Source: Nitrosopumilaceae archaeon (GTDB lineage Archaea > Thermoproteota > Nitrososphaeria > Nitrososphaerales > Nitrosopumilaceae). Taken from it: a stretch of DNA of 64,000 bases. The notes below the pieces were generated by a model that saw nothing but the letters and a program-made list of their open reading frames with translations, was not told where the DNA came from and made no database searches. This document shows positions 1 through 62,057 of this stretch, one piece after another; positions within the stretch are counted from its first letter, which is position 1, and every line of letters begins with the position of its first letter. Position numbers and translations under genes: made by a program. The stretch spans positions 640,001 to 704,000 of the forward strand of contig CBDCCK010000002.1 of NCBI GenBank assembly GCA_965214835.1. The letters are read 5' to 3'.

Positions 1-361
1 AAAAACACCCCCGCCGTAGTCAGGGTGATGGATCAACCCCTCGTTATGCATGTGCTTCGCGCACTATTTGTTGAATGGGGATATCCGAGCTGCTGTGTTC
101 CTGTGCTTCGCGCACTAATGGATGACTGCAGCTTCTGGTCCGTCAAGACCAGGAATGAAGGAAACCGCCTGCGGTGACTCACCTCCTGCCCCACCACCCA
201 CCCAATGATCTGGGAGGATATGGCATGACCGTACTGGGACAGGCAAGCGCGACTGCATCGTGCAACCAGCGTTAGCCATAAAGTGTGCCATGATCAGCTA
301 GGCATGGATCAGAAGAAGCTAGGGACATCGTCGTTTCTACGACGGATGTTTTTAACATAGA
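1..361 (+). mobile_element. Non-autonomous IS110/IS1111-family derivative (left and right non-coding ends joined, no transposase); left tip lies outside the window
   Basis: 1-145 is near-identical to the left end 37626-37770; 180-361 resembles the right end 38880-39057; subterminal IRs aaaaacacccccgccgtag / ctacgacggatgttttt. Confidence 0.85.
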
Positions 362-15257: not shown

Positions 15258-15394
15258 GATGTCCTTTGTGGCAGGCAGATATCTAAATGGTTTGGTTATG
15301 CCAAGGCAGGAGCTTGCCCCCTAAGCGAAGTTGCCTGCCATAGTCTTGATCACCATGCCCACCACGTCATATTTTCGGGGGAGGTAACTCTTAC

Positions 15395-15667
15395 GTTGCA
15401 CGATGCAGTCGCACTTGCCTTGTCCGGGTGCGGTCATGCCATATCCTCTCAGATCATTGAATGGGTGGTGGAGCAGGAGGTGAGTCACCGCAGGCGGTTT
15501 CTTTCCTCCCGGTCTTGATGGATCAGAAGCTGCAGTCATCCATCAGTGCGCTATGCACAGGAACACAGCAGCTCGGATTGCCCCATTCAACAGATAGTGC
15601 GCGAAGCACATGCATAGTGAGGGGTTGATCCATCACCATAACTACGGCAAGGATGTTTTTATGTGTT
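15395..15667 (-). mobile_element. Non-autonomous IS110 derivative, second copy; right end truncated by a MITE
   Basis: Reverse complement is highly similar to 1-266; begins TG|aacacataaaaacatcc. Confidence 0.85.
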
Positions 15668-15751
15668 CAACTACTGCCAACGAATTAGATTGGAGGTTAA
15701 CAAGAACCGTGCTTAATTTTATTGGATTAAAGGAAGGTCAGGCAGTATGGT

Positions 15752-21828: not shown

Positions 21829-22133
21829 CTGGGCAGATGGAAAACGACGAGCTTGGCGTACATGACGTGATAATTGGGCTGAGATCCACCATGCTCAGCT
21901 TTGAGAGCCTTCCACGGGAGGTGCAGGATGCCGTCGAGGCCGAGCTTGACAGGCTTGTAAGGATCAAACAGTAGTTGTAGTCGTCTTTTTCATAGTTTTC
22001 TTGATCGGTAAGGGGCAAGGCATTTCTTGGCTTTTCTCAAAATATTGGACGAACATAATTTCCGTATAAGACATCCATGGTAAAACGCCCGCCAGTAACA
22101 TGGCAACGTTCCTTTCGTCTTCTGATCCGTGCC

Positions 22134-22232
22134 TATACTGATGATCATTGAAAATTTCGCCTCCCTTACAAGCTGCGCTCAAGATACTTGTAGATGTCAA
22201 TCTTGATGGAGCACATCCTAAAGTATTCCGAG
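22134..22232 (-). mobile_element. IS630 right-end fragment
   Basis: Reverse complement of ~46835-46934. Confidence 0.85.
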
Positions 22233-35077: not shown

Positions 35078-36712
35078 GTATGTGGTCACCTACCCCTAGA
35101 TTATTTTGGCCACCTCATCCATGATGGACTTGCCCTGCAGCTTCCATGTCGACACGCATGTATTGAGCCATCCATGCCTTTCCGTCCAGACCAGGCCTCC
35201 CTTGATCTGGCCGCTTATCTTGAATTGAAGTACGACGGGGCGCAGCGCCCGCTCTGCACCATTGTTGGTCGGCTCGACACCCTCGTATTCCAGAAACGCA
35301 AACATGCACAGCAGGGCCCTGTGCATCCTCTTGAGAAGGGGCTCCAGCGGGCCGCCCCATGCATCAACGTATCCGAACAGCATGTTCTGCATGTTGGTTT
35401 CAAACCGCCGGCGCAGCTCCGGCGAGTGCCGCCCCATCAGTCCGTCGGCACTGCTTATCCCCGTCCTCTCCTCGAGCTCCCGGAGATCCTCCTCGGACAG
35501 CTTGTCCCAGCCCTCAAGACACTCCCTGGCATCCTTGAACAGCTGCTGCATCTGCCGGTACAGGACTCCTGCAAACAGCAGGGCACCCTTTTTCTGCGAG
35601 CCATACAGGAGGAACCGCAGCTCGTGCGCCCAGCACCGCTGGAGCCTTCCCAGCAGCCCGAACCTCTTGTATGCGGGATATCCATCCGATGTGACGACGC
35701 CCCCGTACCCGCCCATGTACTGGTCCAGGATCCGGGCGCTCCTGGTGTCTGCATATATCATGAACACGCCCACCGCCGACAGCATGGCCCACGCCCATCC
35801 CAGCCTGCCTGCCAGGTTGATCCCCGTCTCGTCTATGCAGACCGTCTTTGAGCTTCTTACCTCCTCTGCGATGGCCTCGGCAGGCGCCTTTGCGGCGTCG
35901 CAGACGCGTCCCATGCTGTTGATTGCAGTTGACTTTGACATGTGCACGCCCAGGATATCTGACATTATACCCGGGATCCTGTTGTGTGGGACGCCCTCGC
36001 TGCGCAGCTTTGTGACGGCTGTGACCACGCTCGTGTCATAGCTGCCGCGTCGGGGCAGGCCGTCGGGGGCAGTATGCATGGTGCCGCATTTCGGGCACAC
36101 TGCCCTCTGTGTCTCGTGGCGCGTCTCGGTGTACTTTATCTTGAATCCTATCATGTCGCGCACCTGCGGCTTTTTCATGATCTCTGTGGTGGTGCCGCAC
36201 TTGCACTCCGGCGCCCGTCCACCCGGAAAGCAGTGTTTCTGTACCCTGGTGGGCCGGTGGGTGCGCGATACGCCCTTGTGGCCCTTCTGGCCGCCGGGCT
36301 TTTTTCTGTCCTCCCCGGTGCCGTCATCCCCGGCTGCAGCATCGGACCGGGCCCTCTCCTTTCTCCTCTGCGCCTTTTGCCTCTTCCACTCCAGCGAGTC
36401 TGCCGACGGGGGCGAGTTCTCGTTCTCGTAGTACCGGAGCCGGTTGTCCTGCTCCCTGATGGTCTTGTCGCGCTTTTCAAGTGTCTTGTTTAGCCTTTCA
36501 ATGGTCCTGCCCTGCTCCTCAATGATATTGTCACGCTCCTTGAGGTCCTTTTTTAGATTCCTTATCGTCTCCGTGGGCGATGCTGTAGATGCCTCGATCT
36601 CGTAGCATGCGGAGAGCTGACCTTTCACAATGCCTAGTCTACGCGATCATAGTATAAGGATCAGCACCGTCAGTAATGTTTACCCTATTGTGAGGGGTAG
36701 GTGACCTCATAC
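35078..36712 (-). mobile_element. Intact IS66 (ISBst12-like); transposase 35096-36628
   Basis: IDETG, SDGYPAY, QRCWAH and PTNNGAERALR motifs; IR gtatg.ggtcacctacccc; 8-bp DR acggaatc. Confidence 0.95.
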
Positions 36713-36817
36713 ACGGAATCCGGGCCAACCTTTAAGTGGTACAGTGCCGTAATATTGCCACGGTTCCGCCGGTGTAATGCTGGCTACGAGACTCGAAAGA
36801 GAGCTCAGGAATCGCCC

Positions 36818-37570
36818 TCAAATCTCCACGTTTCCTGCCCTGTACCAGCCGTGATCCAGCCTGAAGTATTTGTCTTTGACTGACTGCCACCGTTCCTCGG
36901 ATCTTTTACCCGTAGTACTTCTTATCCATACCGCATATGCAAAAAAATCCGCAAGCTGTAATATTGGATGTTTCTTTGGATCGCCGTTTATGATGCGGCC
37001 GCTTATGCTGCTCAGTTCCTTGTGGTGCCTGAACCGTAGCACTTCGCGCAGTCCGGCCATGACGCGCTCTGCCTTCTTTCTTGCCTTCTTGTTGAGCCTT
37101 TCATAGACGGCCTCTCCCGTCCCGCCGTGTTCTTCAAGAAAGTCCTGGAACCTCTCCAGCATTATCAGCATCGCATAAGACTGCGGATCAGCCGGAATCG
37201 AATATCTCTTGCAGTGGTGTTTCAAATCTATCGTGACTGACAAAAGCACGCAATCGGATTCCCTGATCATGTCAAAAACGTCGTCTGCGAGCCGCCTTCT
37301 TTGCATGTCTGACAGCCTGTCATAAGGGTAACAACTGTTCCTCAACGGATGGTAGTGAAGCTTGAATCTTTCCGGTAGCTGTATGTCTTTGAAGTATTTG
37401 TCTATTGTAAGCCCGACTGCGTCGTCCAGCGCCTCCTTTTCATTGTCACTTGCGATGATTCCTGCCAGTGTGAAGAAGCGGGAACTGCCATCTATGACCT
37501 GGTAGTTCTCATCGAGATAATCTCCCAAGTCCCCGCTTTCATCAATATACAGGCGATACAACAACAGCAT
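36818..37570 (-). CDS. DUF3800-family (RNase H-like) protein
   Basis: LYIDESGD and LQLADFFAYA motifs. Confidence 0.8.
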   Translation of the reverse strand: MLLLYRLYIDESGDLGDYLDENYQVIDGSSRFFTLAGIIASDNEKEALDDAVGLTIDKYFKDIQLPERFKLHYHPLRNSCYPYDRLSDMQRRRLADDVFDMIRESDCVLLSVTIDLKHHCKRYSIPADPQSYAMLIMLERFQDFLEEHGGTGEAVYERLNKKARKKAERVMAGLREVLRFRHHKELSSISGRIINGDPKKHPILQLADFFAYAVWIRSTTGKRSEERWQSVKDKYFRLDHGWYRAGNVEI

Positions 37571-37615
37571 GTGGCTGTGCTGGGATATAAAATCTGGGGG
37601 CGTCTTAGCCTGTTG

Positions 37616-39057
37616 AACACATGATAAAAACGCCCCCGCCGTAGCCAGGGTGATGGATCAACCCCTCGTTATGCATGTGCTTCGCGCACTACCTGTTGAA
37701 TGGGGATATCCGAGCTGCTGTGTTCCTGTGCTACGCGCACTGATGGATGAATGCAGCTTCTGATCTGTCAAACCATATCCGAAAGGAGGTGAAAGAAAAG
37801 GATTGAGAAGCATAGGAATAGACATTGGAAAGAGAAAATGCGGTGTGCGTCATCGACGCCAAGGGACACGTGCTAGAGGAGGGCTCGTATAACAACACGT
37901 ACAAGGAGGCATCAAAGCTTGCTGCACGACTGAAAAAAGAGTACAAAAAGTGCCAGGCCGCGTGCGAGTCAACGGGCAACATGTGGCTAAAGACGTTCAG
38001 GGCATTCGAGGATCAGCACATCCCCATACTGCTTGCAAACACCCTCAAGATGAAGATAGTATCAGAGACCAGCGTAAAGACTGACCCGATAGACGCAAGG
38101 AAGATAGCCGAAACGCTCAGGGCCGGAATGATACCACGATGCTACGTGGCATCAGCAGAGCTGAGGGATGTCAGGGAGCTGATGAGGTACAGGATACGGA
38201 TGGTGCAGGAGAGGACCGCAGTCATAAACGGGCTGCACAGCTTGGCTTGACAAGTACGACATAGCCATAGATGCATCCACGATGTACTCCAAGAAGGCCA
38301 TACGGAAGATCTCCGATACCAGGCTGAACATGCCAAACGATGACAGGATACTGGCAAGCTGCACCAGGAGGATTGCATCAGTTACAGAGGAGATAGGCCA
38401 GGCAGAGGAGGACATAGGAAGACAGGCAGGATCGAACGAGGATGCCAAGCTGCTGTTGAGCATGACGGGAATAGACGCCTTTGCAGCAATGCTGCTGATA
38501 GCAGAGATCGGTGACATAACCAGGTTTCCATCGCCGAACCAGCTTGTGTCCTGGGCCGGCATGTGTCCCCGGGTGTACCAGTCGGGGGACCGCGAGTACC
38601 ACGGCCGCATGAAAAAGGATGCAAACCGCAGGATCAACTGGCTGATGATCCAGATAGCCAACGTCGCCGTACAGCACGACGACAGGATGAAAGAGTTCTA
38701 CGAGAGGGTCCGCAAAAGGAACGGCAACAACCACGTCATAGCGATAACGCATGTTGCAAACAAGATGCTCAGGATAATCTGGCACATGCTGACGACAAAG
38801 ACTGCGTATTCATCGCGCAATGCTGCCCTGTACGACAAGAAGATCAAGAGGGTGACAGAACTGGCGGGAACGGCATAGGATTACCACCTTCCTCCCCCAC
38901 CCACCCACCCAATGATCCGCCCGCACCCTGGCAGGTGCGACAGGACTGGCTCGTGCGTATTGCTAGCGTTAGCTATAAAGCACAGCCCGGCCGACTAGGC
39001 ACGGATCAGAAGACGAAAGGAACGTTGCCATGTTACTGGCGGGCGTTTTACCATGGA
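37616..39057 (+). mobile_element. IS110/IS1111-family element between TG cores (37614-15 and 39058-59); DEDD recombinase 37803-38878 with two frameshifts
   Basis: IGIDIG, CEST, KTDPIDA and YQSG motifs; subterminal IR taaaaacgccc / gggcgtttta; RBS ggaggtga. Confidence 0.93.
37650..37765 (+). ncRNA. Predicted bridge RNA core (target-binding loop 37661-37705, donor-binding loop 37713-37758)
   Basis: Two internal loops with closing stems and apical gtgc/gcac hairpins; loop strands match the target and donor junction. RNA ends and transcription are not shown by the sequence. Confidence 0.85.
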
Positions 39058-39151
39058 TGCATAACCGTGCCTGAACGCGTAAAAACAGCCAGTTTTTCGT
39101 GCCTAAAATCGGGGTTGTGCAACAGGCTACCCAGTACCACCGGGCACTCCT

Positions 39152-39739
39152 ATGAAAAGATGGGACGTGGTGGAAATCCCATTGGAGAGAAATCCACAGG
39201 ATACTAGAAACGAAAGTTGGAAAATACAGGGGTCAAAATCAGAATGGGATAAACTACGATTCAAAATAACTGTTCATGAAACATTATCAAGATCAAAATG
39301 GATAGCGTTGTTAAATGACATGCACAAAAAATATGGCGTTGAGTGTATACAAGATCTAAACGATGAGAGATCAAGTCTGGGATTCATAAAGCCTCGTGAA
39401 TTCCAACAGCGTTTTGAAAAAAGAAAAAAACACGAACGTAATGTACAAACCACACTCTTTTCTCAGGAGCCATTTCTAACGATTCACAACTATGATGTAC
39501 AACCAAGAATGACCTATCGATGCTCTGGCTGCAAATCAAAAAATCCTCATGATCAGCAGATTTTGGAGTGGGGAGTTTACGAATGGATTAGAAAAAATCC
39601 CGACAAAATTGAGCAAGTATGGAAAAACCTACACATTGGCGAATCAGGGTACGATACAAGCTTCCTTGTGGGCAACATGTTTCTTCATCGCTCCTCCTTT
39701 ATGATAATCAGCATATTCCGGCACAAAATCGACATTTAG
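39152..39739 (+). CDS. Hypothetical protein, probably N-terminally truncated by the MITE; convergent with DUF488
   Basis: AT-rich 195-aa ORF; SLGFIKP, CxxC..H and FLVGNM motifs. Confidence 0.6.
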   Translation: MKRWDVVEIPLERNPQDTRNESWKIQGSKSEWDKLRFKITVHETLSRSKWIALLNDMHKKYGVECIQDLNDERSSLGFIKPREFQQRFEKRKKHERNVQTTLFSQEPFLTIHNYDVQPRMTYRCSGCKSKNPHDQQILEWGVYEWIRKNPDKIEQVWKNLHIGESGYDTSFLVGNMFLHRSSFMIISIFRHKIDI

Positions 39740-40144
39740 AAGATTCGGATTCCTAATGATCTCTTTTAACAGGTGCCTGTGACACGGTGTGCCTTCCGGT
39801 TCATAGCACAGCAAGGTTACGTGGGAATAGTTTGATTTGGCCTTCAATGATTTTATTAAATTGACACTGTTCTGATTTTCTTGCAATTCAAGTTTGAATG
39901 ATGGTATAAAATCCTCCCAATGGATTTGCTCGTTTTTGTATCTGCGTAACAGTTCTTGGCTGGGCGCAAGATCCCTCATCCACCTATCAAAATGGGTTTT
40001 TTTGACGCCTCTGGGGTAGTACCTCGTTATTAGGACTCTTAGGCCATCACCGTACTCCTTTGGTTTGTATATGCTCTTTGTCTTAATCACTTTGGATGCT
40101 TTCAATTTTATTGTAAGCCTCCAATAGTGAAAAATTTCCAGCAA
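39644..40144 (-). CDS. DUF488/YeaO-family protein
   Basis: DGLRVLITRYYPRGVKK, DLAPSQEL and TLLCYE...CHR motifs. Confidence 0.85.
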   Translation of the reverse strand: MLEIFHYWRLTIKLKASKVIKTKSIYKPKEYGDGLRVLITRYYPRGVKKTHFDRWMRDLAPSQELLRRYKNEQIHWEDFIPSFKLELQENQNSVNLIKSLKAKSNYSHVTLLCYEPEGTPCHRHLLKEIIRNPNLLNVDFVPEYADYHKGGAMKKHVAHKEACIVP

Positions 40145-40205
40145 CAGCTAAAATTCTTCATCAAGTCTAGGCGGATTTGCCTCTTTTTAGCTTTTTCGGT
40201 CACTT

Positions 40206-40630
40206 GTACGAGGCCACCTATGTTTTGACGTGTTTTGACAACCTGTCTAACATACCACGATCATGCCGATCAAATACGATGCCTGCACGACATCAGCATT
40301 ATGAAAGGCCGCCGACCCACATACCGCAAGCTTGAGGCCACAATCGTGTCAGTCACAGACAGAATAAGCACGTTAGAAAGGAGCCTAAAGGCAACGAACA
40401 GAATGCTGGAGGAGAAAGACAAGACAATCGAGGAGCAGGGCAGGCAGCTCCGGTACTACGAGAACGAGAACTCACCGCCGTCTCCCGCAAGATAAGTGGG
40501 CAGATCAAGGGAGGGGAGCTCTGGATGAGGAGGTGGTCGTGGGTTATGACGTGCATACTGACGTGGAGGGCAAGGGGCAGATCCGTAGCAGACGAGGTCA
40601 TGAAACTGGTTTAGGAACGTGACCTCATAC
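40206..40630 (+). mobile_element. IS66 internal-deletion derivative (both ends present)
   Basis: Left end like 17891 fused at ~40483 to a right end like 62445. Confidence 0.85.
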
Positions 40631-40639
40631 GATCTATGA

Positions 40640-41806
40640 ATGAATGCAAGAGAACAAAAAGCAAGACAAATCATGGAAACTCCCGGACACGCCACACAGA
40701 TCATCGGCACCGACAACTTTAGGGTCAGATCGCAGTCTGATCCCTCCAAGTTCTACACCGTTACAAGGACGGGCAACGGGTTAGTCTGCGAGTGTCCAGA
40801 CCACCGGAACAGGAGGGCAGACTGCAAGCACATCAAGGTAATACTGGAGCTTGTCCGAAAAAACGTGTTCGGACACGACGGGTTCAGGATCATGGAACGC
40901 TCCAAGCTCAAACTCTGCAAGTATTGTGATTCTGGCAGGATCGTGAGGCGGGGCAAGAGAAAGACCAAGAAGGGTGATGCCCAATTGTTCAAGTGCAACG
41001 ATTGCCAAAGGGCATTTACTGCAAACTTTGGTTTTGAGGGAAAGCAGTACGATGGCAGGATTATCACCGGAGCCCTACAGATGTACTATACGGGAATGTC
41101 GGTACGGGATATCGCGGATCATTACGAGATGATGGGAACCGACGTGTCGTTCAGGACCATATACAACTGGGTTGACGAGTATTCCCGGCTTGCGGCCAAG
41201 TACATCAATTGTATAGTTCCACGTGTTGGTAGTTGGTTCAGGGCAGACGAGGTATGGATCAAGATATCCGGAAAACAGTGCTATCTGTTTGCCTCAATGG
41301 ATGATGATACAAGATACTGGCTGGCCTCCGACCTTGCAGACAACAAGTTCCAGCACAATGCGGATTCATTGCTGGACATGACCAAGAAACAGGCCGGAAA
41401 GAATCCCCGAAACTTCATCACGGACGGCCTGCCAGCCTATGCCAAGTCCTCAAGGAAGGTATTCGGAAAGGGTACGAACCACGTGAAGCACATCCACCTA
41501 GCCGGAAAAAGAGACCGTGACAACAACAACAAGATGGAGAGGCTCAACGGCGAGATCAGGGACCGCGAGAAGGTGTTCCGTGGCCTCAAGAAGACCGACA
41601 CTGCAATCCTTGACGGCATGAGGGTCTACTACAACTATACGAAAAAGCACGGTGCACTGGACGGCCAGACCCCGGCGAAATCGGCCCTGATAAGCGTGGA
41701 CGGTACAAACAAGTGGAAGACGATAATCCAGAACGCCAGTTTGAGAAGGGATGTAAATCAGGTTTGAATCGAGAGAAGTCTCATATCACGAAGATTGCAC
41801 AGAACC
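40640..41806 (+). mobile_element. IS6-family SWIM-Zn-finger transposase (intact, 40640-41767) with right IR
   Basis: Paralog of 16696-17881; DDE motifs; aagattgcacagaacc. Confidence 0.92.
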
Positions 41807-42078
41807 GGTCATAGCATACCTTATGTGCTAGATTGACGTAGCTATGCCATGAATACTGCCCCTGTCTGGAGATCAAGGATCTGCTCTGACTGCAAGCGAG
41901 TCCGCTGCCAGCCCGGATGCAACTGCGACTGTCACTGGCAGCGCTGGCGCTAGGACTAGCCTGATACATGACCCTGATTTTGGGCACAAAAAATAGCTGT
42001 CTTGCGCGTTCAGGCACAGTTATGCAAGACTGCTGGGACTGCAAGCTTTATGAGTGCCTTGGAGTTCCCTCAATCCAT

Positions 42079-42607
42079 ATGAATTTCGTCCATGGAGTAA
42101 TAGCTGCAGTGGGACTGCTGGTGGCTGCCAACTTGGCCATGATTTCGGCTGACCTGGATGGCGGGGGCGCCGCCGATCATGCCAGGGAGCCTGCAGCACT
42201 TGACATGATGGCAGAGTCGGCGGGGATGCCGGCTCCCGTGGCCAAGGATATGCCTGGCGCAGCGGCGTCTGACGTTGTCGGAGAGCCCCCCACGTGAGGG
42301 GTACAGTCAGTTGTACAGCGAATCTGAAAGGATCCCCTATCTTGGCGTAACCTACCGCGAGCTCCGCGACATGGGATATTCTGAGCTGGAGGGCAGAATT
42401 AACGCAAATCTGACTCCATACTTTGACGGCATTGATTTTATGAGCCAGGGGGAGCTTGAGGGCCTTCGGGAGGCAGTAAAGGAGACCCGGAAACAGAAGT
42501 TTCGGTTTACCAACACGGATGACATTGAAAAGGTCAGGGTTCAGCTGGCCTTATCCAAGCTTGCACACCTGTTTAGGCTAGTGGACGACAGGGCAAAGAC
42601 AATCTAG
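42079..42607 (+). other. Two small overlapping hypothetical ORFs, the first with an N-terminal TM segment
   Basis: MNFVHGVIAAVGLLVAANL; ORF 42275-42607. Confidence 0.3.
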
Positions 42608-42729
42608 TGACACATCTAATTCATGATGCCGTTTTAGTCTGATCTTAATGTCAACAGTTTCGATGTATGAGGCCATGTACCCCTGCTGGGCATGAAAATC
42701 ACAGTTGCATGCAGATTCACGCCTAATTG

Positions 42730-43788
42730 CCAGGATTGGATGTCAGGACGGCCTAAATTTCTTGGCCTTCTGGATGCCATCATAAAAAACCTGGAAAGGC
42801 TCGGCGTTGAGTGCAAGAAGGTCGTCGTCTACAGGGGACGCATGGGGAACTTTATCCTGAGATTTCCAGTACTAGGAGCGAGGAAAAAAAGAGGCTTTGA
42901 GGAGATTCTCGACGAGTCCAAGCCGGATGCCGTAATACTGGACAACCCAAATGATCTGTGGATGGTTGCCGCCGGCAGAAAAATACCGGTGCTGGCGTAC
43001 TTTTGGGATCAGTGGATACACAGGAAAATATCAAGGGAGGACGGGGGATTCTTGACATCCTGTGTCTGGCGGTACGGGCACGCATTTGGGATCCCTGCCT
43101 GAAAAACGCAGATGCCATACTTGCCTAGACAGACTCCATAGCGGACACCATCAGGAAGCACTATCCAAAAAACAACACAGTGACGTTCCCGTATTCGAGC
43201 ATAGACACGAACAGCTGGAGGGGAGAGGGGCCCGGGGGCGCCATGGAGCTGAGGCACCCGTGCGTGGGCCTGCTACAGAACGCTGGCCGCTGATCCAAGA
43301 CAAGGGAGATGCTCATCCTGCCCAAGGTCGTCGAGGCGCCCCCACACGTAACATTCTACTGGGCCGGTGACGGGCGCTACCGCGACAGGATACTGGAGCC
43401 GCTGGCCGGATACGACAACTTTGAGTGACTGGGGCCGCTGGAGGGCCCCGACAGGATCATGGAGTACCTCTCCTCGATCTACGTCTACGGCCTAGTCAGC
43501 GGCATTGACATGTCGCCGTACTCGCTCAAGCAGGCCATGTCCATGGAGAAGCCTGCCATTGCAACGGATACCGGCGGCGTCTCAGAGACGATGCGGGACG
43601 GAACGACGGGGTTCCTGGTGGGTCTGGGGGACTACCGGGGGTGGACAGAGAAGACCACGATGCTACTGGGAGACGCAGAAAGGGCGCGGGACATGGGAAG
43701 CCAGGGACGCAGGTTCGTGCAGGACAGCTGGGACAGCAGCGTGGCCGCAGACAGGCTTGTTGCGATCCTTGGGGAAATCAAAAAGTGA
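42730..43788 (+). pseudogene. GT4 glycosyltransferase pseudogene
   Basis: AMSMEKPAIATDTGGVSE...GTTGFLV; several frameshifts. Confidence 0.75.
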
Positions 43789-44278
43789 CATAGCCGGCGG
43801 GACGGAGCCATGATGGTCCCTGCAGGTCCTCGTGGAGGCGCTACGAGGGGGACGGCTAGATCAAGCTCCACCTTTGGGCTCTGGCCAGCCAGGATGCCAG
43901 CTTTCTGAACAAGTCGTACATGTCAAATTTTTGTATGATGCCACGTACCCTTGACAGTCAGTAGACTTTGCCAAAAATGACGCAAAAACTGCCTGATTTT
44001 TTTGATCCGTACAGGTTGCGCATAAAGTCTACTGACAACGATACTGATCCATGTACTATGGGCGCGTATGATGTCACCTGCCCTTAACCAGACAGGTACG
44101 AACTGGCGCGCAACTATGATTTTCATGTATGGTACTGATTAGAAATTTTCAACAATAGAAGGCATTTCCCTGCGTAGTTCATGCCCATGTGTGTTGAGGA
44201 ACTTTTGCTTTACACAGCAAGCAAGGGGACGTGGCCCCATACAAAACATCAAATATAATACCATAAAATACGCTGATC

Positions 44279-45364
44279 GTGCAGATCATGCCAAGCCCCG
44301 TATCATTGAGGCACCGCCTTTTACGTAGAATAGAAAACAGGGCAAAGGATCTGCTGTTTGTTGATAGCCGATTGCACAACTATCAGATCAAATGTCCGGT
44401 CTGTAGCCGTTCAAGAAACGTTCAAAGAACTGACTTTTGGAGGTCTTTGAGGTACCCAAAGGCATCCACGTTTTTGATGCGGCACCGGTTCAACAGCATC
44501 ACGTCGTTCTTTCGTACCCTGCCGGATTTTCTCATAATAGGCATTGCCAAGTCGGGAACTACGTCGCTGTACGGCCTGATAAGCGCGCATCCACACGTGA
44601 TTCCCGCACAATCCAAGGAGGTGCACTATTTCACCGATTCGCGGAATTATGAGATGGGTACGCTGAGGTATCGTGCTAGGTTTCCAAGCGTGCCGTACAA
44701 GCGCTGTCTTGCCGTACGATACGGCCAAAAAATACTGTCCGGTGAGGCATCCTCCACCTATCTGTTCCATCCAATGGTGCCTAGTAGGGTCAAGGCCCTA
44801 CTTCCGGACGTTAGGCTGATCGTGATACTACGCAACCCCGTTGATCGAGCCTACTCTGAGTATCACATGCAGGTTAGAGAACGATGCGAGTCGCTGACAT
44901 TTGAGGATGCAATAAGGGCAGAAAAAGACAGGACGTCATACGAGATGGAAAGGGCAAGATCTGATCCGCGGTTTTACTGGAGCAACCTGCACCGCTACTC
45001 CTACCTTCAAAAAGGCCACTATGCAGAACAGCTGACTCACTGGTTCAGATACTACAACAAAGACCAGTTTCTCATCCTGACCCTGGAGGAGCTAAAGGTA
45101 GACCGGCGGGGAGTACTTGACAGGGTCTTTGAGTTTCTGGGACTAGAGCCGTTTGATGTGGGCAGCCTTGACCCCATGCCGAGCTATTCCTGGATAAAAC
45201 AGTTCATACACGAGCCCTCCGACGAGACTGACCGCGGGTTGCTAAATGCATACAGTTACCCCGAGATGAATCCCAAGACGCGTGCAATGCTGCTGGATTA
45301 CTTCAAGCCGCACAACGAACGGCTCTCCCGGCTCTTGCAGCGTGACTTTGACTGGAACGGCTGA
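44279..45364 (+). CDS. PAPS-dependent sulfotransferase (heparan-sulfate sulfotransferase-like)
   Basis: DFLIIGIAKSGTTSL, KEVHYF and LRNPVDRAYS motifs. Confidence 0.9.
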   Translation: MQIMPSPVSLRHRLLRRIENRAKDLLFVDSRLHNYQIKCPVCSRSRNVQRTDFWRSLRYPKASTFLMRHRFNSITSFFRTLPDFLIIGIAKSGTTSLYGLISAHPHVIPAQSKEVHYFTDSRNYEMGTLRYRARFPSVPYKRCLAVRYGQKILSGEASSTYLFHPMVPSRVKALLPDVRLIVILRNPVDRAYSEYHMQVRERCESLTFEDAIRAEKDRTSYEMERARSDPRFYWSNLHRYSYLQKGHYAEQLTHWFRYYNKDQFLILTLEELKVDRRGVLDRVFEFLGLEPFDVGSLDPMPSYSWIKQFIHEPSDETDRGLLNAYSYPEMNPKTRAMLLDYFKPHNERLSRLLQRDFDWNG

Positions 45365-45727
45365 CTTGCGACAGCCTTAGATGACCTGTGATCGGTAGCA
45401 CGGTGCCAGTACCACCATCCAGACTTGGAAACTTCCGATCGTATGAGGCAGTGTCTATCCTAGCCATTCGATCACTTGCATGCTGCCTACCGTAAGTTCT
45501 CAAATGACAAATTTTTCAGACCGAATCATATTTTGATCACCGTGTCTGACACAACGCATGACGGAGACGACATGGGAAGATCTGAAGAAGGCGTGCAAGG
45601 TGGAAAAGGATCCACATGTGATGGCCAAGATACCTGCAACAAACATGCTGTCCGAACCTCCAACGATGCATCACTGAGTTACTTCTGAACACGGGTTAAA
45701 ACGCCCGGGCCCGTAGCAGTGGTGACG

Positions 45728-45825
45728 TGGATCAACCGCTGTCTTCCCATGCGCCCCGCGCGCTGACTTCTGAATGCGGTAATTCCGAGCTGCAGTGTTC
45801 GTGCACCACGGCGTGCTGATAGATG
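45728..45825 (+). ncRNA. Second, reprogrammed bridge RNA core (truncated at the 3' side)
   Basis: Guides gtcttccca / acttctg and gtgttc / atagatg; compensatory stems accgc/gcggt and gcgc/gcgc. Confidence 0.8.
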
Positions 45826-45840
45826 GTACGAGGTCACCTA

Positions 45841-46932
45841 TACTGATGATCATTGAAAATTTCGCCTGATTACACATCTTGTAAAGGTTTATAGCTCCCC
45901 ACCATGTCACTCCCGGCATGAACAAGACGAAAATCCTCACGGATGCCATGCATGTCGAAAAGGATCTCAAGATTCACACCAGAATCATGGCGGTGCGCTC
46001 CGTGCTGCTTGGCAACACCACCGCACAGACTGCAGAGATTGCCGACGTGACACAGCGTACCGTACAGATGTGGATCGAGAGATTCGAGCTTGACGGCATC
46101 GACGGCCTCCGTGACTCCTAACAGGGACAAAAAACCAAAGGTTCCGGTCGGCAGGATAAAAAAGATCGCCACAAAGTTGCGTAGGATGGAAAAGCTCACC
46201 CCGAAGAAGCTGTGCAACCGGGTGCGCCGCAGGCTGCATGTCACATACAGCGTGGGAAGCATCAGAAGAATCCTGCGCACGATGGGATTCTCGCCAAAGA
46301 CGTCAACCACCAGGCTTGCAGATGCTGCCGACGCAAAGGCGGTAAGACGGTGGCAGGGGGCGGCAAGAACCGCGATCAAGCTTGCAAAAAGGCGCGGATT
46401 TAGGATAGCCGTACAGGACGAGTCGATATTCGTCAGTACGGGAAGGGACGGCAGAAAGTTCTGGTCGCCCGTGGGGGACAGGATCGAGGTGCAACGATCC
46501 GGCAGAAGGGAACGCGTCGCGGTATACGGAACGATTGCAGACGACGGAACCCGGCTGATGCGCACATACGACAAGTTCAACAGCGCAAACTTTGTGCATT
46601 ATCTCAAGCAGGTGCACAAAAAGCGGGGAAAGGTTCTGATTGTGATGGACAACGCAGCACAGCACAAGACCGGAAAGGTCCGCAGGTACCTGAAGAAAAA
46701 TCCAGACGTCGTCCTGCTGTACCTGCCGGTAGCCAGGCCGGAGCTGAGCGTCATAGAGGCAGTCTGGAAGGATGCCAAGTACGGGCCGGTCACGTCGGCA
46801 TTTTACGAGACGGTAGATCACCTCAAAAGGGCCGTCTCGGAATACTTTAGGACGTGTTCCATCAAGGTTGACATCTATAGGTACCTTGAGCGCAGCTTGT
46901 AAGGGAGGCGAAATTTTCAATGGTCATCAGTA
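45841..46932 (+). mobile_element. IS630-family element; transposase 45918-46902 in two frames
   Basis: TA duplication; IR tactgatga.cattgaaaatttcgcct; QDES, MDNA and PELSVIE motifs. Confidence 0.93.
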
Positions 46933-47064
46933 TAGGCGTGGATCAGAGAGACACAATTTGCCACCGCTAAAGGGCCCGGGCGTTTTAACATAGATGGGAA
47001 GACTGGCCTAGGGTGGCAAACTTTTACAGATGAATTATAAGTATGTTTTTGAAAACATAGCCTG

Positions 47065-47430
47065 TTGAATCTCCAGCGGATCTATGTCTACGTGCGTCAG
47101 GGGTGGCATGTAATATCCCCGATATTTGGATTTAGCAACTTTATCATGCTGATCTATCTTACACTGACGTTTGAGGTTCCACTTTACGTGTTTGCGCCGT
47201 TGGTGACAGCTCCGATCCTGATAGGACTGGTCTTTACAGGCAAGTTATTCAGAGACAAACAGCAGCCAGTAGACGCGAGCATGAACTACTTCCGGTCACT
47301 GGAGGTACTGCGCAGTGAATCCATCCTATGGGAACAGATCGGCAGAATCTGCAAAAACGATGGAATACCCCTGAATGAGGAGTTTGTCAAGCGCCTTGAC
47401 GTGCTGAAAAAGGCGGTAAGGAAGAAATAA
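47065..47430 (+). CDS. Small two-TM membrane protein
   Basis: Two hydrophobic segments; TATA-like ttataag upstream. Confidence 0.55.
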   Translation: MNLQRIYVYVRQGWHVISPIFGFSNFIMLIYLTLTFEVPLYVFAPLVTAPILIGLVFTGKLFRDKQQPVDASMNYFRSLEVLRSESILWEQIGRICKNDGIPLNEEFVKRLDVLKKAVRKK

Positions 47431-48149
47431 AACTCCCGTCAGAGGCCACTGTATGCGCTTGGGACTGTTGCCTAATTCACTTCCATCCCCCCACGCCGGC
47501 TCTTGCGGCGCATTCCAAGGTTCGGATGCCCCTTCTCTCCACATCGTTTCTGCCAGCAACGATGCCGATATTGTCGGTTGCAAGCTTGGTCGATGCGTAG
47601 TGTCTATGCGAAATGACCGATCACAATTTTGACACATCGTGTCTATTTTGACACAAAAGCGATTGTAATAGGTTAGCCCCTGCCTAGGCAGCAATCAGGC
47701 ACGAGCCTGTCTACAGTTGTGATTTTCATGCCTGACAGGTAAGGGACGTGACTCCAATTCTAGGCAGGGGCTAACCTGTTACAAGCGATTGCTTTTCAAT
47801 CATATACACTATGTCATGTCCGGCAAGGCATCTTCATGCGGTCTAGTCTGCCATCCTCCAAGCCATCAGACTGTCGCGTAGCTCCACTTGCTTGATCCAG
47901 CCTGCGCGTTTTTTTTTTTTGAATTTTCGTCCACTTTGCACGCCTTACCCCAAATAGCATCGTACGTACGAGGCCACCTGCCACTGACCAGTCAGGTACG
48001 AGTCTGCATATGCCTGTGATTTTCACTAGACCTCATGCATAATCGGTGCAAATCAAAAATCAGGCAGCTTTTGCGTCATTTTTGGCAAATACGCACAAGA
48101 CCTATCCCTAGGCAACAAGGGGACGTGACCTAGTACCATCGTACGGCTT

Positions 48150-61763: not shown

Positions 61764-62057
61764 ATGAGCATGACGGGAATAGACGCCTTTGCTGCAATGA
61801 AGGTCCGCAGGTACCTGAAGAAAAATCCCGACGTTGTCCTGCTGTACCTGCCGGTAGCCAGGCCGGAGCTGAGCGCCATGGAGGCAGTCGAAGGATGCCA
61901 AGTACGGGCCGGTCACGTCGGCCTTTTATGACACGGTAGATCACCTCAAAAGGGCCGTCTCGGAATACTTTAGGACGTGCTCCATCAAGATTGACATCTA
62001 CAAGTATCTTGAGCGCAGCGTGTAAGGGAGGCGAAATTTTCAATGATCATCAGTATA
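61764..62057 (+). mobile_element. IS630 3' fragment preceded by a ~35-bp IS110 transposase fragment
   Basis: gagcatgacgggaatagacgcctttgc matches 38458-38484; the remainder matches 46674-46934. Confidence 0.85.

Follow-up and report, generated by a model that had tools for sequence, protein, structure and literature searches.

Candidate bridge-RNA-guided insertion sequences of the IS110/IS1111 type, with a TG core, in a Nitrosopumilaceae archaeon

Elements A and B and their relatives in the window

The analysed stretch of DNA—64,000 nucleotides from a Nitrosopumilaceae archaeon, hereafter the window—carries two related insertions, termed A and B, together with several shorter derivatives. Every sequence string and coordinate that the original prediction gave for the two elements was confirmed upon re-reading, which establishes their anatomy, and the archaeal origin that it proposed agrees with the rRNA of the genome. 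Element A and its surroundings comprise the following features.

37607-37615, + strand: left target half, tagcctgt plus TG core; outer end of a MITE terminal inverted repeat
37610-37621, +: left junction cctgt-TG/aacaca (sequence read)
37616-39057, +: element A, an IS110/IS1111-family insertion sequence of 1442 bp, recombinase broken by two frameshifts
37625-37640, +: left subterminal inverted repeat TAAAAACGCCCCCGCC (read directly; partner 39038-39050)
37645-37775, +: predicted bridge RNA gene, limits of covariance model R1 (152.9 bits)
37652-37660, +: 5' strand of closing stem P1, pairing with 37761-37769 (9/9 pairs changed on both sides)
37668-37675, +: target-loop guide gttatgca, reverse complement of TGcataac
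37692-37700, +: target-loop guide cctgttg, starting at 37692
37719-37725, +: donor-loop 5' guide TGTGTTC, reverse complement of G+aacaca, the element left end
37743-37749, +: donor-loop 3' guide ATGGA+TG (atggatgaa from 37743), identical to the element right end plus core
37803-38878, +: recombinase reading frame (DEDD_Tnp_IS110 and Transposase_20), interrupted near 37842 and 38236
39001-39012, +: right-end motif ACGGATCAGAAG, complementary to 37757-37768 (linker and 3' strand of P1)
39038-39050, +: right subterminal inverted repeat GGCGGGCGTTTTA (read directly)
39051-39065, +: right junction ccatgga/TG-cataac (sequence read)
39058-39140, +: TG core and right target half (cataacc...), running on into the rest of the palindromic MITE
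39114-39126, −: other terminal repeat of that MITE

The MITE hosting A is small, palindromic and related to an IS5-family element. TG stands at both junctions, the joined flanks correspond to uninterrupted sites found elsewhere in the genome, and no target-site duplication is present. Both non-coding ends are long (~190 nt upstream and ~180 nt downstream). The IS1111-like subterminal repeats that had been proposed are present on direct reading, with 9 nt perfect and 13/15 positions matching across a 2-nt gap; this indel, and a length under the limit, kept them out of the repeat-finder output. Among relatives their sequences vary and their complementarity is kept, as judged by eye. The A/T-rich part of the left repeat may have a second role as a TATA-like box.

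Family membership, as originally proposed, is established by the protein searches: PF01548 (DEDD_Tnp_IS110) and PF02371 (Transposase_20) were found on the two ORF pieces of A, nearly all homologues carry both domains, and the intact copy scores 234 bits with NF033542 ("IS110 family RNA-guided transposase"), for which the cut-off is 140. The best solved relatives of this intact copy are the recombinases of ISCro4 and IS621 (E values of 4e-9 and 9e-9), the likeness to IS621 being distant and located in the C-terminal half; tblastn returned a Klebsiella ISKpn2-like protein (25.5% identity over 91% of the query) and IS116 (22.3%). The recombinase motifs GIDIG, CESTG, TDPID and YQSG were recognized by eye. 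One intact recombinase ORF of the family, encoding 378 aa, was found in the genome (C2:513240-514647); the ends and donor loop of this copy match, and its flanks are cognate. The frameshift near 37842 is particular to the window copy of A and the one near 38236, an extra G, is common to all eight A-type copies, which occupy different sites and are 98-100% identical over their left 185 nt. The frame is split in each of the three full-length copies of B. Element B and the remaining copies in the window are as follows.

1-361, +: MITE-like derivative of 371 bp whose first 10 nt precede the window; it has a bridge RNA (20-150) and the right non-coding end but no recombinase
15350-15670, −: truncated MITE-like copy; bridge RNA at 15511-15641 (−)
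22074-22135, −: A-type right-end fragment of 62 nt, abutting another IS630-family end
45681-45692, +: B left junction acttc-TG/aacac (sequence read)
45688-46994, +: element B, a derivative from a second subfamily that lacks the recombinase; it consists of a left end, the nested IS630-family element and a right end
45719-45826, +: B bridge RNA gene, cut directly 3' of the donor 3' guide (GATAGATG)
45741, 45767, 45795 and 45819, +: starts of the B guides GTCTTCCCA (gtcttccca), ACTTCTG, GTGTTC and ATAGATG
45833-46933, +: IS630-family element nested in B; terminal inverted repeats of 28 nt and, here too, a split transposase frame
46934-46994, +: B right end, ending in ...AACATAGA, followed by TG-ggaagac
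46990-47003, +: B right junction ataga/TG-ggaagac (sequence read)

With its interior taken up by the IS630-family element, B carries no IS110 recombinase, and its donor loop has lost the outer stem; the RNA model scores 72.5 bits here vs 114.6 bits in a full-length B copy.

A predicted RNA and its agreement with flanks and element ends

The left end encodes a predicted RNA of ~125 nt, consisting of a closing stem and two internal-loop arms, each with a 4-bp hairpin cap. The RNA of IS621 has a 5' stem-loop; in the archaeal RNA a closing stem leads into a three-way junction instead. Model R1 yielded 26 matches in the Nitrosopumilaceae archaeon genome. Of 29 recombinase loci in other genomes belonging to the same order, it matched 13; in all 13 of these, as in the archaeon itself, the RNA is placed 5' of the recombinase gene—in line with the IS110-like placement originally described. 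The compensatory stem changes reported between A and B (cccc/gggg to accgc/gcggt and gtgc/gcac to gcgc/gcgc) are present. More broadly, compensatory changes on both sides were found at 21/28 pairs across 25 sequences, establishing a conserved structure, and the same alignment holds 52 G-U cells that are compatible with the sense strand only. Pairing cells reach 94.4%, vs 76.6% in shuffled sequences and 29-46% with slid partners, in a structure alignment (A2) that was fitted to the model and is thereby biased toward pairing.

Within both loops, and in all lineages examined, the top-strand guide comes first and the bottom-strand guide second in the 5'-to-3' direction, which bears out the right-before-left order of the original prediction. 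Its further claims, that the core is TG and that guides co-vary with target and donor, also hold: the core reads TG in 19/22 detected left junctions, and comparison of the copies demonstrates guide covariation with flanks and ends beyond all shuffles (0/50,000-100,000), also in other genomes taken alone. In detail, and with permutation counts that overstate independence because sequences within a genome are related, the left target guide (5 nt) agrees with the 5 nt before the core at 98/110 positions over 22 elements (shuffled mean 44.2; 0/100,000), the right target guide (8 nt) agrees at 74/136 positions over 17 elements (shuffled mean 40.5; 0/100,000), and the donor 5' guide, which takes in the G alone of the TG core, agrees with the left end at 96/114 positions (67.0 shuffled; 0/50,000). 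Elements of other genomes alone gave 50/55 vs 23.1 shuffled for the left target guide and 51/88 vs 24.5 for the right one. The donor 3' guide was identical to the right end, itself located without use of the guide, in 14/15 5-mers across the variants ATGGA, ATAGA, ATAGG and ATGAG.

At least four guide classes coexist in this genome, and the terminal repeats that they target belong to a different resident IS or MITE in each case; one of the host elements is of the IS5 family and another is ISH3/IS4-like. Empty target sites, which are repeat termini, were counted as exact matches and with at most one mismatch.

Class CCTGT/GTTATGCA, located at ..cctgtTGcataac: 4 exact, 30 with ≤1 mismatch
Class GTAGT/CATTTTCA, located at ..gtagtTGaaaatg: 23 exact, 40 with ≤1 mismatch
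Class GAGGT/TTACGCGACA, located at ..ggggtTGctgcgtaa: 2 exact, 17 with ≤1 mismatch
Class ACTTC/GTCTTCCCA, located at ..acttcTGggaagac: 57 exact, 106 with ≤1 mismatch

Several copies are at odds with the guide that they carry. In the MITE at 1-361, the right target matches at 1/8 positions, and a donor guide ATGGA stands against a right end ATAGA; right-target matches are 1/8 in the full-length B copy at C2:2665851 and 2/8 in a chimeric copy at C2:1519219; and the left target of C2:504218 matches at 2/5. Elements L041 (2/8) and L044 (1/8) are likewise discordant, and the copy at 15670 (−) of the window occupies a gtagt-type site with the guide TCTGT.

Proposed mechanism and competing explanations

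Taken together, A and B very probably belong to an IS110/IS1111-type family that chooses its sites by a self-encoded bridge RNA (seekRNA), with sublineages retargeted to different sites and with mobilisation in trans. Under this model, the donor loop—the second arm—would read the junction formed when the element is excised (right end, TG, left end), a DEDD/serine recombinase in complex with the bridge RNA would exchange strands at the common TG, and insertion would proceed without target duplication. Sublineages would share the donor loop and element ends and differ in their target-loop letters, so that the resident transposon or MITE whose terminal inverted repeat is entered would differ from one sublineage to the next. 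We infer RNA production, recombinase binding, the order of strand exchange and trans mobilisation from sequence; a check of RNA sequencing runs turned up none that covers the stretch. Because a single intact recombinase gene of the family was found in the genome, movement in trans, directed in each case by a bridge RNA, is most likely for the A copies with frameshifts and for the MITEs that lack a recombinase. Three such MITEs, of 367-371 bp, consist of the two non-coding ends only (RNA plus ends).

A somewhat unlikely alternative is that the family is genuine but the window copies, and perhaps all copies in the genome, are immobile relics; the eight near-identical A copies would then have spread before the frameshift or been homogenised by gene conversion, and the MITEs would be deletion remnants that were never mobile. 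The two frameshifts of A, the missing recombinase and truncated donor loop of B, the split frames of all full-length B copies and the several copies at sites mismatching their guides are in keeping with such decay. Contigs from four runs of one study span the occupied junctions of A and B, and neither an empty site nor a circle junction of either element was seen in them, which also fits relics. However, the same extra G recurs in 8/8 dispersed A-type copies with near-identical left ends, for which spread after the frameshift is the simpler explanation. The intact 378-aa recombinase with its matching ends, donor loop and cognate flanks also speaks against relics, as do the three MITEs of near-equal length at three different cognate-type sites.

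Alternatively, sites could be chosen by the DNA itself or by the protein without any RNA, the left end acting as a folded single-stranded DNA (IS200/IS605-like) or as a protein-binding repeat. Although the ends do hold inverted repeats (the subterminal pair and 39001-39012/37757-37768) that are possible protein sites, we consider this very improbable: the 52 G-U cells indicate a fold specific to the strand on which the recombinase gene is read, two loops with the core inside both guides are the geometry of bridge/seek RNAs, and the recombinase family has members for which the use of such RNAs is reported as proven (PMC11208160, PMC11187229). It is scarcely credible that the left-end structure serves solely as a 5' UTR regulating recombinase translation, with an incidental likeness to the flanks. 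The start codon and the GGAGGTGA motif do follow immediately after the structure, and regulatory 5' UTR structures are described in IS110 elements such as ISPpu9 (PMC12288879), but the agreement of guides with flanks and element ends is beyond all shuffles, in other genomes too, and the MITEs keep the RNA without any gene to regulate.

Within the preferred reading of guidance by bridge RNA, the right end could hold a further part of the system. At 45-57 nt from the right end lies a conserved motif (39001-39012 in A) whose pairing partners in the left end are the linker and the closing stem's 3' half, with covariation across 10 lineages; the two 40-nt ends are predicted to be able to form a long hairpin with the donor core at its tip; a transcript across the joined ends would therefore fold as a larger, four-arm RNA. 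That the RNA gene is split and reconstituted by excision, such that a working guide is completed only in the circular element—which, with the guide-swapped sublineages, would make a third layout for the IS110 superfamily—seems to us quite unlikely. If true, the 367-371-bp MITEs, built from right and left non-coding ends, would be exactly the minimal module, and RNA-carrying MITEs would parasitise one recombinase, using the terminal repeats of other transposons as landing pads.

To our knowledge, bridge/seek RNAs are the only case of one RNA programming both recombination partners, and they are under development for genome editing. The lineage described here adds a compact predicted RNA (~125 nt) with a TG core and short guides of 5+2 and 6-8+2 nt. 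IS110-adjacent RNAs have already been mined on a large scale (bioRxiv 10.64898/2026.10.21.760802), so the clade may already be present, unnamed, in such catalogues. A single genome appears to offer a natural experiment, in which the same donor loop is combined with different target letters and correspondingly different repeats; moreover, non-autonomous MITEs and copies with frameshifts have retained guide RNAs of their own, which suggests that recombinase and guide are exchanged in trans in nature. The family also shows that archaeal insertion sequences use the terminal repeats of other transposons as safe landing sites.

Comparison with known systems

Partridge and Hall reportedly described, in 2003, IS4321/IS5075 as IS1111-family elements with subterminal inverted repeats that enter the terminal inverted repeats of other transposons. 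These elements are said to be bacterial and to use one target family (Tn21-type), whereas at least four guide classes occur in the one genome studied here.

Several features are shared with IS621/IS110 as described by Durrant et al. 2024 (PMC11208160) and Hiraizumi et al. 2024 (PMC11208158): an RNA at the left end, upstream of and codirectional with the gene, a target loop preceding the donor loop, internal-loop strands that read both DNA strands across a 2-nt core, and repeated sequences as insertion targets. The 3' guides here also have 2-nt extensions at their 3' ends that may correspond to the handshake guides in those reports (PMC11208160, PMC11208158). In contrast to IS621 as presented there, the two guides of each loop stand in the opposite order with respect to the element orientation, the core is TG instead of CT, and the subterminal repeats are long (PMC11208160, PMC11208158).

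The IS1111 group (ISEc11, ISPa11, ISKpn4), as characterized by Siddiquee et al. 2024 (PMC11187229), resembles the archaeal family in its DEDD recombinase with a G-L-x-P-x4-S-G motif, in subterminal inverted repeats a few bases inside the ends, and in a top-strand-complementary guide placed 5' of the bottom-strand one, with matches overlapping at the core. However, in that group the gene is followed by the long non-coding region with the RNA, whereas here the RNA lies upstream. Exceptions are mentioned—ISMtsp17 with an upstream region, ISHvo10 and ISAcp5 with long non-coding regions on both sides—and the available text of PMC11187229 gives no guide order for these three.

For the non-autonomous copies, the closest parallel is MITEPpu9 of ISPpu9, a small element with IS110-type ends and an sRNA gene that is proposed to be moved in trans by the IS transposase (PMC12288879). 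Its ssr9 is, by that account, not a bridge RNA and is dispensable for transposition, whereas the archaeal MITEs carry a full bridge RNA gene with their own target letters.

In the wide sense of the IS110 family, the domains, a two-loop RNA with a common core (at the sequence level) and insertion without duplication are all present. According to the cited accounts, a top-strand guide in the 5' position is the IS1111-type seekRNA order and the reverse is the IS110-type one (PMC11187229), subterminal repeats of 7-17 bp mark the IS1111 group (PMC11208160; PMC11187229), and the narrow IS110 group (IS621, ISEc21) combines an upstream RNA with a 5' bottom-strand match and very short or no subterminal repeats. 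Set against these descriptions, the archaeal elements have the upstream RNA of narrow IS110, but with reversed order and long repeats, and the repeats and guide order of IS1111, but with the RNA on the other side of the gene. The layout is a mixed one—RNA placement as in IS110, guide order and subterminal repeats as in IS1111, and a TG core—and this mixing of traits that define two groups bears on how the RNA moved between element ends during evolution.

Predicted bridge RNA: copies, structure and distribution

BLAST searches with the ends of elements A and B located 33 left-end and 28 right-end places in this 3.2-Mb genome, whose SSU and LSU rRNAs are archaeal, in keeping with the lineage assumed in the original prediction. 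A covariance model of the predicted left-end bridge RNA (R1) found 26 RNA copies in the genome, with the following matches in the window:

20–150 (+), RNA copy
15511–15641 (−), RNA copy
37645–37775 (+), RNA copy of element A
45719–45848 (+), RNA copy of element B

Left and right ends could be matched up for 17 elements—eight A-type copies (1437–1517 bp), three of a sister type (A2), three B-type copies, the one in the window included, and three MITE-like copies of 367–371 bp in which the left non-coding end is fused directly to the right one.

The 126 nt from 37650 are predicted to fold into a closing stem around two arms (−41.6 kcal/mol, z −2.4). For 16 sequences taken from this genome, the paired fraction of cells was 93.1%, with compensatory changes stemming from the A/B split only; the stem changes between A and B were those originally described. 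Outside this genome, 29 recombinase loci drawn from 30 genomes of the same order were scanned with R1; 13 of them matched, and each match lay upstream of the gene. In an alignment of 25 sequences, which was fitted to the model and is thereby biased in favour of pairing, 94.4% of cells were paired, as compared with 76.6% in shuffles and 29–46% with slid partners; 21 of 28 pairs displayed changes on both sides, and 52 G-U cells were compatible only with the strand of the recombinase gene. Within the phylum, matches occurred in 6 of 151 sampled genomes. The protein clade is wider than the RNA: at an E-value limit of 1e-10 it comprises 255 homologues, with identities reaching 60–62%, two of which are assigned by one source to a Nitrosopumilus MAG and a Kaiserbacteria MAG, respectively. 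With filters off, R1 detected nothing credible in the Klebsiella ISKpn2-like, second Klebsiella, Haloarcula plasmid and IS116 loci (best E 0.21). Rfam yielded no match to the RNA in 36000–48000 at E up to 1, meaning either that no curated family exists for this RNA or that it is too distant from those available.

Guide covariation with target sites and element ends

The central claim of the original prediction was that loop 1 (the target loop) and loop 2 (the donor loop) carry guides that change together with the insertion-site flanks and the element's own ends, respectively, around a TG core. Every guide string of A and B lies at the position originally reported, and the comparison was extended to the other copies. 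Loop strands were taken from the model alignment, left junctions were located via a conserved left-end pattern and right junctions via a right-end pattern; for the loop 2 3′ strand (15 RNAs), this was done without any use of the guide.

Table. Agreement of loop strands with flanks and element ends (matches; shuffled value; shuffles scoring as high).
Loop 1 3′ strand, 5 nt before the core, 22 elements: 98/110; mean 44.2; 0/100,000
Same, other genomes only, 11 elements: 50/55; 23.1; 0/100,000
Loop 1 5′ strand (reverse complement), 8 nt after the core, 17 elements: 74/136; 40.5; 0/100,000
Same, other genomes only, 11 elements: 51/88; 24.5; 0/100,000
Loop 2 5′ strand, first 6 nt of the element: 96/114; 67.0; 0/50,000
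Loop 2 3′ strand, last 5 nt of the element: 14/15 identical 5-mers; 0/50,000
Target-loop 3′ extension, first 2 nt of the element: 31/38; 28.4; 2574/50,000
Donor-loop 3′ extension, first 2 nt of the right target: 15/34; 8.6; 374/50,000

The sample behind each figure was defined as follows (L numbers denote individual RNA-carrying loci). In the left test of loop 1, 3 of 25 RNAs were out, having no left junction by rule (L014, L032, L056). In the right test, four RNAs had no candidate (L014, L015, L045, L020) and four more were left out by judgement—L017, L064 and L056, with no TG core or the wrong distance, and L019, with a guide one base short; their scores were 3/8, 2/8, 1/8 and 4/7, respectively. 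The loop 2 5′ strand and extension tests omitted L010 and L064 (duplicate guide classes) as well as L017 and L056, and the loop 2 3′ strand test was limited to the 15 RNAs (of 25) for which there was a single right-end candidate, covering the variants ATGGA, ATAGA, ATAGG and ATGAG.

Nearly every junction had the predicted TG core. The core complement in the 5′ guide varies: some lineages have UA, UG or CG, for which, by eye, wobble pairing with TG would still be possible. Further copies, likewise compared by eye, agreed with their sites: in one other genome (G092), three copies with a GGTCG guide lie at cgtcg-TG and one with a TTTTG guide at atttg-TG, and in another (G053) both guides match (5/5 and 7/8). 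Covariation in many lineages thus supports the proposed mode of guidance, and we infer that the A/B family is a real bridge-RNA family in archaea, with a mixed IS110/IS1111 layout, that has been retargeted naturally inside one genome and has RNA-carrying non-autonomous derivatives.

The sites to which the guides point are themselves repetitive, the uninterrupted forms of four predicted targets recurring in the genome:

CCTGTTGCATAAC: 4 exact copies, 30 within 1 mismatch
GTAGTTGAAAATG: 23 exact copies, 40 within 1 mismatch
GAGGTTGTCGCGTAA: 2 exact copies, 17 within 1 mismatch
ACTTCTGGGAAGAC: 57 exact copies, 106 within 1 mismatch

These copies form inverted pairs spaced by about 1.35–1.4 kb, 115 bp, 100 bp or 75 bp, and are therefore terminal repeats of other elements. 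The first host element encodes an IS5-family transposase (NF033579, 166.7 bits), and the second a DDE_Tnp_1 protein whose nearest models are ISH3/IS4, with scores below their cut-offs. The site occupied by element A is itself a terminal repeat of a small palindromic MITE that has its second repeat at 39114–39126.

Decay, nesting and possible mobility of the elements

Both window copies are themselves defective. Their features are:

37616–39057, element A, left flank cctgt-TG, right flank TG-cataac
37825–38250, ORF piece 1 of A (DEDD_Tnp_IS110)
38282–38878, ORF piece 2 of A (Transposase_20)
45688–46994, element B, flanked by acttc-TG and TG-ggaagac
45833–46933, IS630-family element inside B, with 28-nt terminal inverted repeats

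The recombinase frame is broken at the same place in all eight A-type copies, one ORF ending at element position 633–637 and the next starting at 665–669, and the same break occurs in a chimeric A2 copy at C2:1519219, on the contig that holds the window. Comparison with an intact copy traced the common frameshift to one extra G. Programmed frameshifting at this site (cttgGcttgac) was considered and rejected, as no slippery motif was seen and the intact copy does without the G; the shift is most readily taken as a real lesion. A second shift near 37842 in the window copy of A puts the first catalytic aspartate out of frame. Only one copy was found with an unbroken frame: C2:513240–514647, whose recombinase gene (C2:513383–514516, minus strand) codes for 378 aa if translation begins at the first possible start. 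Immediately left of A, the gene at 36818–37570 (−) encodes a DUF3800 protein (PF12686, E 1.8e-14) and has no relation to the finding.

Element B is not a full element, its IS110-type remainder comprising approximately 140 nt of left end and 61 nt of right end, and its donor loop is interrupted directly 3′ of GATAGATG. The nested IS630-family element accounts for 32 BLAST pieces in the genome, with window positions at 45833–46933, 22135–22232 (−) and 61800–62056; it has inserted at CTAG just inside IS110-type right ends twice, once in B and once beside an A-type right-end fragment at 22074–22135. Two copies of different subfamilies—B, at 45826/45827, and a copy at C2:504218 (L020)—both break off precisely at the end of the donor-guide-coded GATG and run on into GTACGAG.., a sequence that also recurs next to other repeats in the genome. 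Because the DNA coding the donor 3′ guide matches a right end plus core letter for letter, it might serve as a pseudo-end.

Several copies are at odds with their own guide. Decay after insertion is one possible cause, and rearrangement between copies another, for which the element at C2:1517779–1519219 (L010) would be an example: its left half carries an A2 guide at an A2-type left flank, and its A-type right half ends in a 4-nt duplication (TGGA) and is followed by a class-3 target (tgtcgcctaa). The element looks like a recombination product of two copies. Mobilisation by the RNA of another element is also plausible, because most classes have the same donor ends. Among the individual cases, the MITE-like copy at 15350–15670 (−) has a TCTGT target guide and a cagtagt-TG site, which is of the kind targeted by another guide; this copy has been truncated and abuts GTAAGAGTTACC.., the terminus of a further repeat. 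In another genome (G038), the left end of a copy at L065 begins with 8 nt that are missing from L032 and L066, two copies with intact 377-aa recombinases whose left flanks still match the target guide. A search for RNA runs containing 37400–39300 returned none. Contigs of four sequencing runs (one study) aligned to 36800–47600 covered the left junctions of A and B in their occupied form and contained no 37615–39058 joint, 45687–46995 joint or circle junction, a result that is uninformative either way since such contigs break at repeats and lose rare forms.

Right-end motif and comparison with known systems

A 12-nt motif lying 45–57 nt from the right end (39001–39012 in A) is complementary to the linker and the 3′ strand of the closing stem (37757–37768). 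The complementarity occurs in the same relative places in loci L031–L044 and L062, and it is kept with different letters over 10 lineages, one per genome or subfamily (98/120 versus 79.6 shuffled; 0/50,000 as high). When the right end, TG and left end of A were joined computationally, the predicted fold had 40 pairs between the ends and placed the donor core at the apex of a long hairpin (−83.5 kcal/mol versus −74.2 ± 5.0 in mononucleotide shuffles). The motif may reflect a precursor RNA transcribed across the joined ends, 5′–3′ pairing in the mRNA, or a second inverted repeat at the DNA level. An outward promoter in the right end was rejected as a general feature, since just 5 of the 15 elements, which are closely related to one another, have a TATAAA/TTTAAA box 20–25 nt upstream of the motif.

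The hybrid layout put forward in the original prediction—RNA upstream of the recombinase, IS1111 guide order and subterminal repeats—is borne out. In their description of the two groups, Durrant et al. assign the bridge RNA to the left end in IS110 and to the right end in IS1111, and give subterminal repeats of 7–17 bp as the mark of IS1111 (PMC11208160). Siddiquee et al., where they treat IS1111 seekRNAs, report a top-strand match 5′ of the bottom-strand match, ISEc21 being reversed, and mention a few IS1111-type elements whose non-coding region lies upstream, or that have two long ones (PMC11187229). The present family resembles IS1111 in guide order and subterminal repeats; unlike IS1111, its RNA lies upstream of the recombinase gene, and both non-coding ends are long. 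The recombinase motif G-L-x-P-x4-S-G was rejected as a discriminator between IS1111 and IS110 because ISCro4 has it too. With the DNA read on the other strand, the RNA–DNA geometry equals that of IS621, and the 2-nt guide extensions fall at the handshake position, which Hiraizumi et al. locate, in their account of these guides, at the 3′ end of the 3′ guides (PMC11208158). Cognate controls were not enriched (8/34 versus 9.3 and 11/38 versus 14.1), and the target-loop extension test is weak because AA dominates; taken together, the extension tests lean weakly toward an IS621-like handshake.

Archaeal IS110 recombinases are already known, 662 being reported by Vaysset et al. (bioRxiv 10.1101/2024.06.21.599552), and MITEPpu9 is a MITE tied to an IS110 element that carries a different sRNA (PMC12288879). 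In the main texts of the literature searched, no description was found of bridge-RNA-bearing MITEs or of the present layout in archaea. A 2026 preprint clustered 181,180 IS110-adjacent intergenic sequences (bioRxiv 10.64898/2026.10.21.760802), among which the present clade may already be catalogued. The A/B family has the full definition of neither narrow group, IS110 or IS1111; its predicted mode of action is that of the published systems, and in the wide sense it is a member of the IS110 family.
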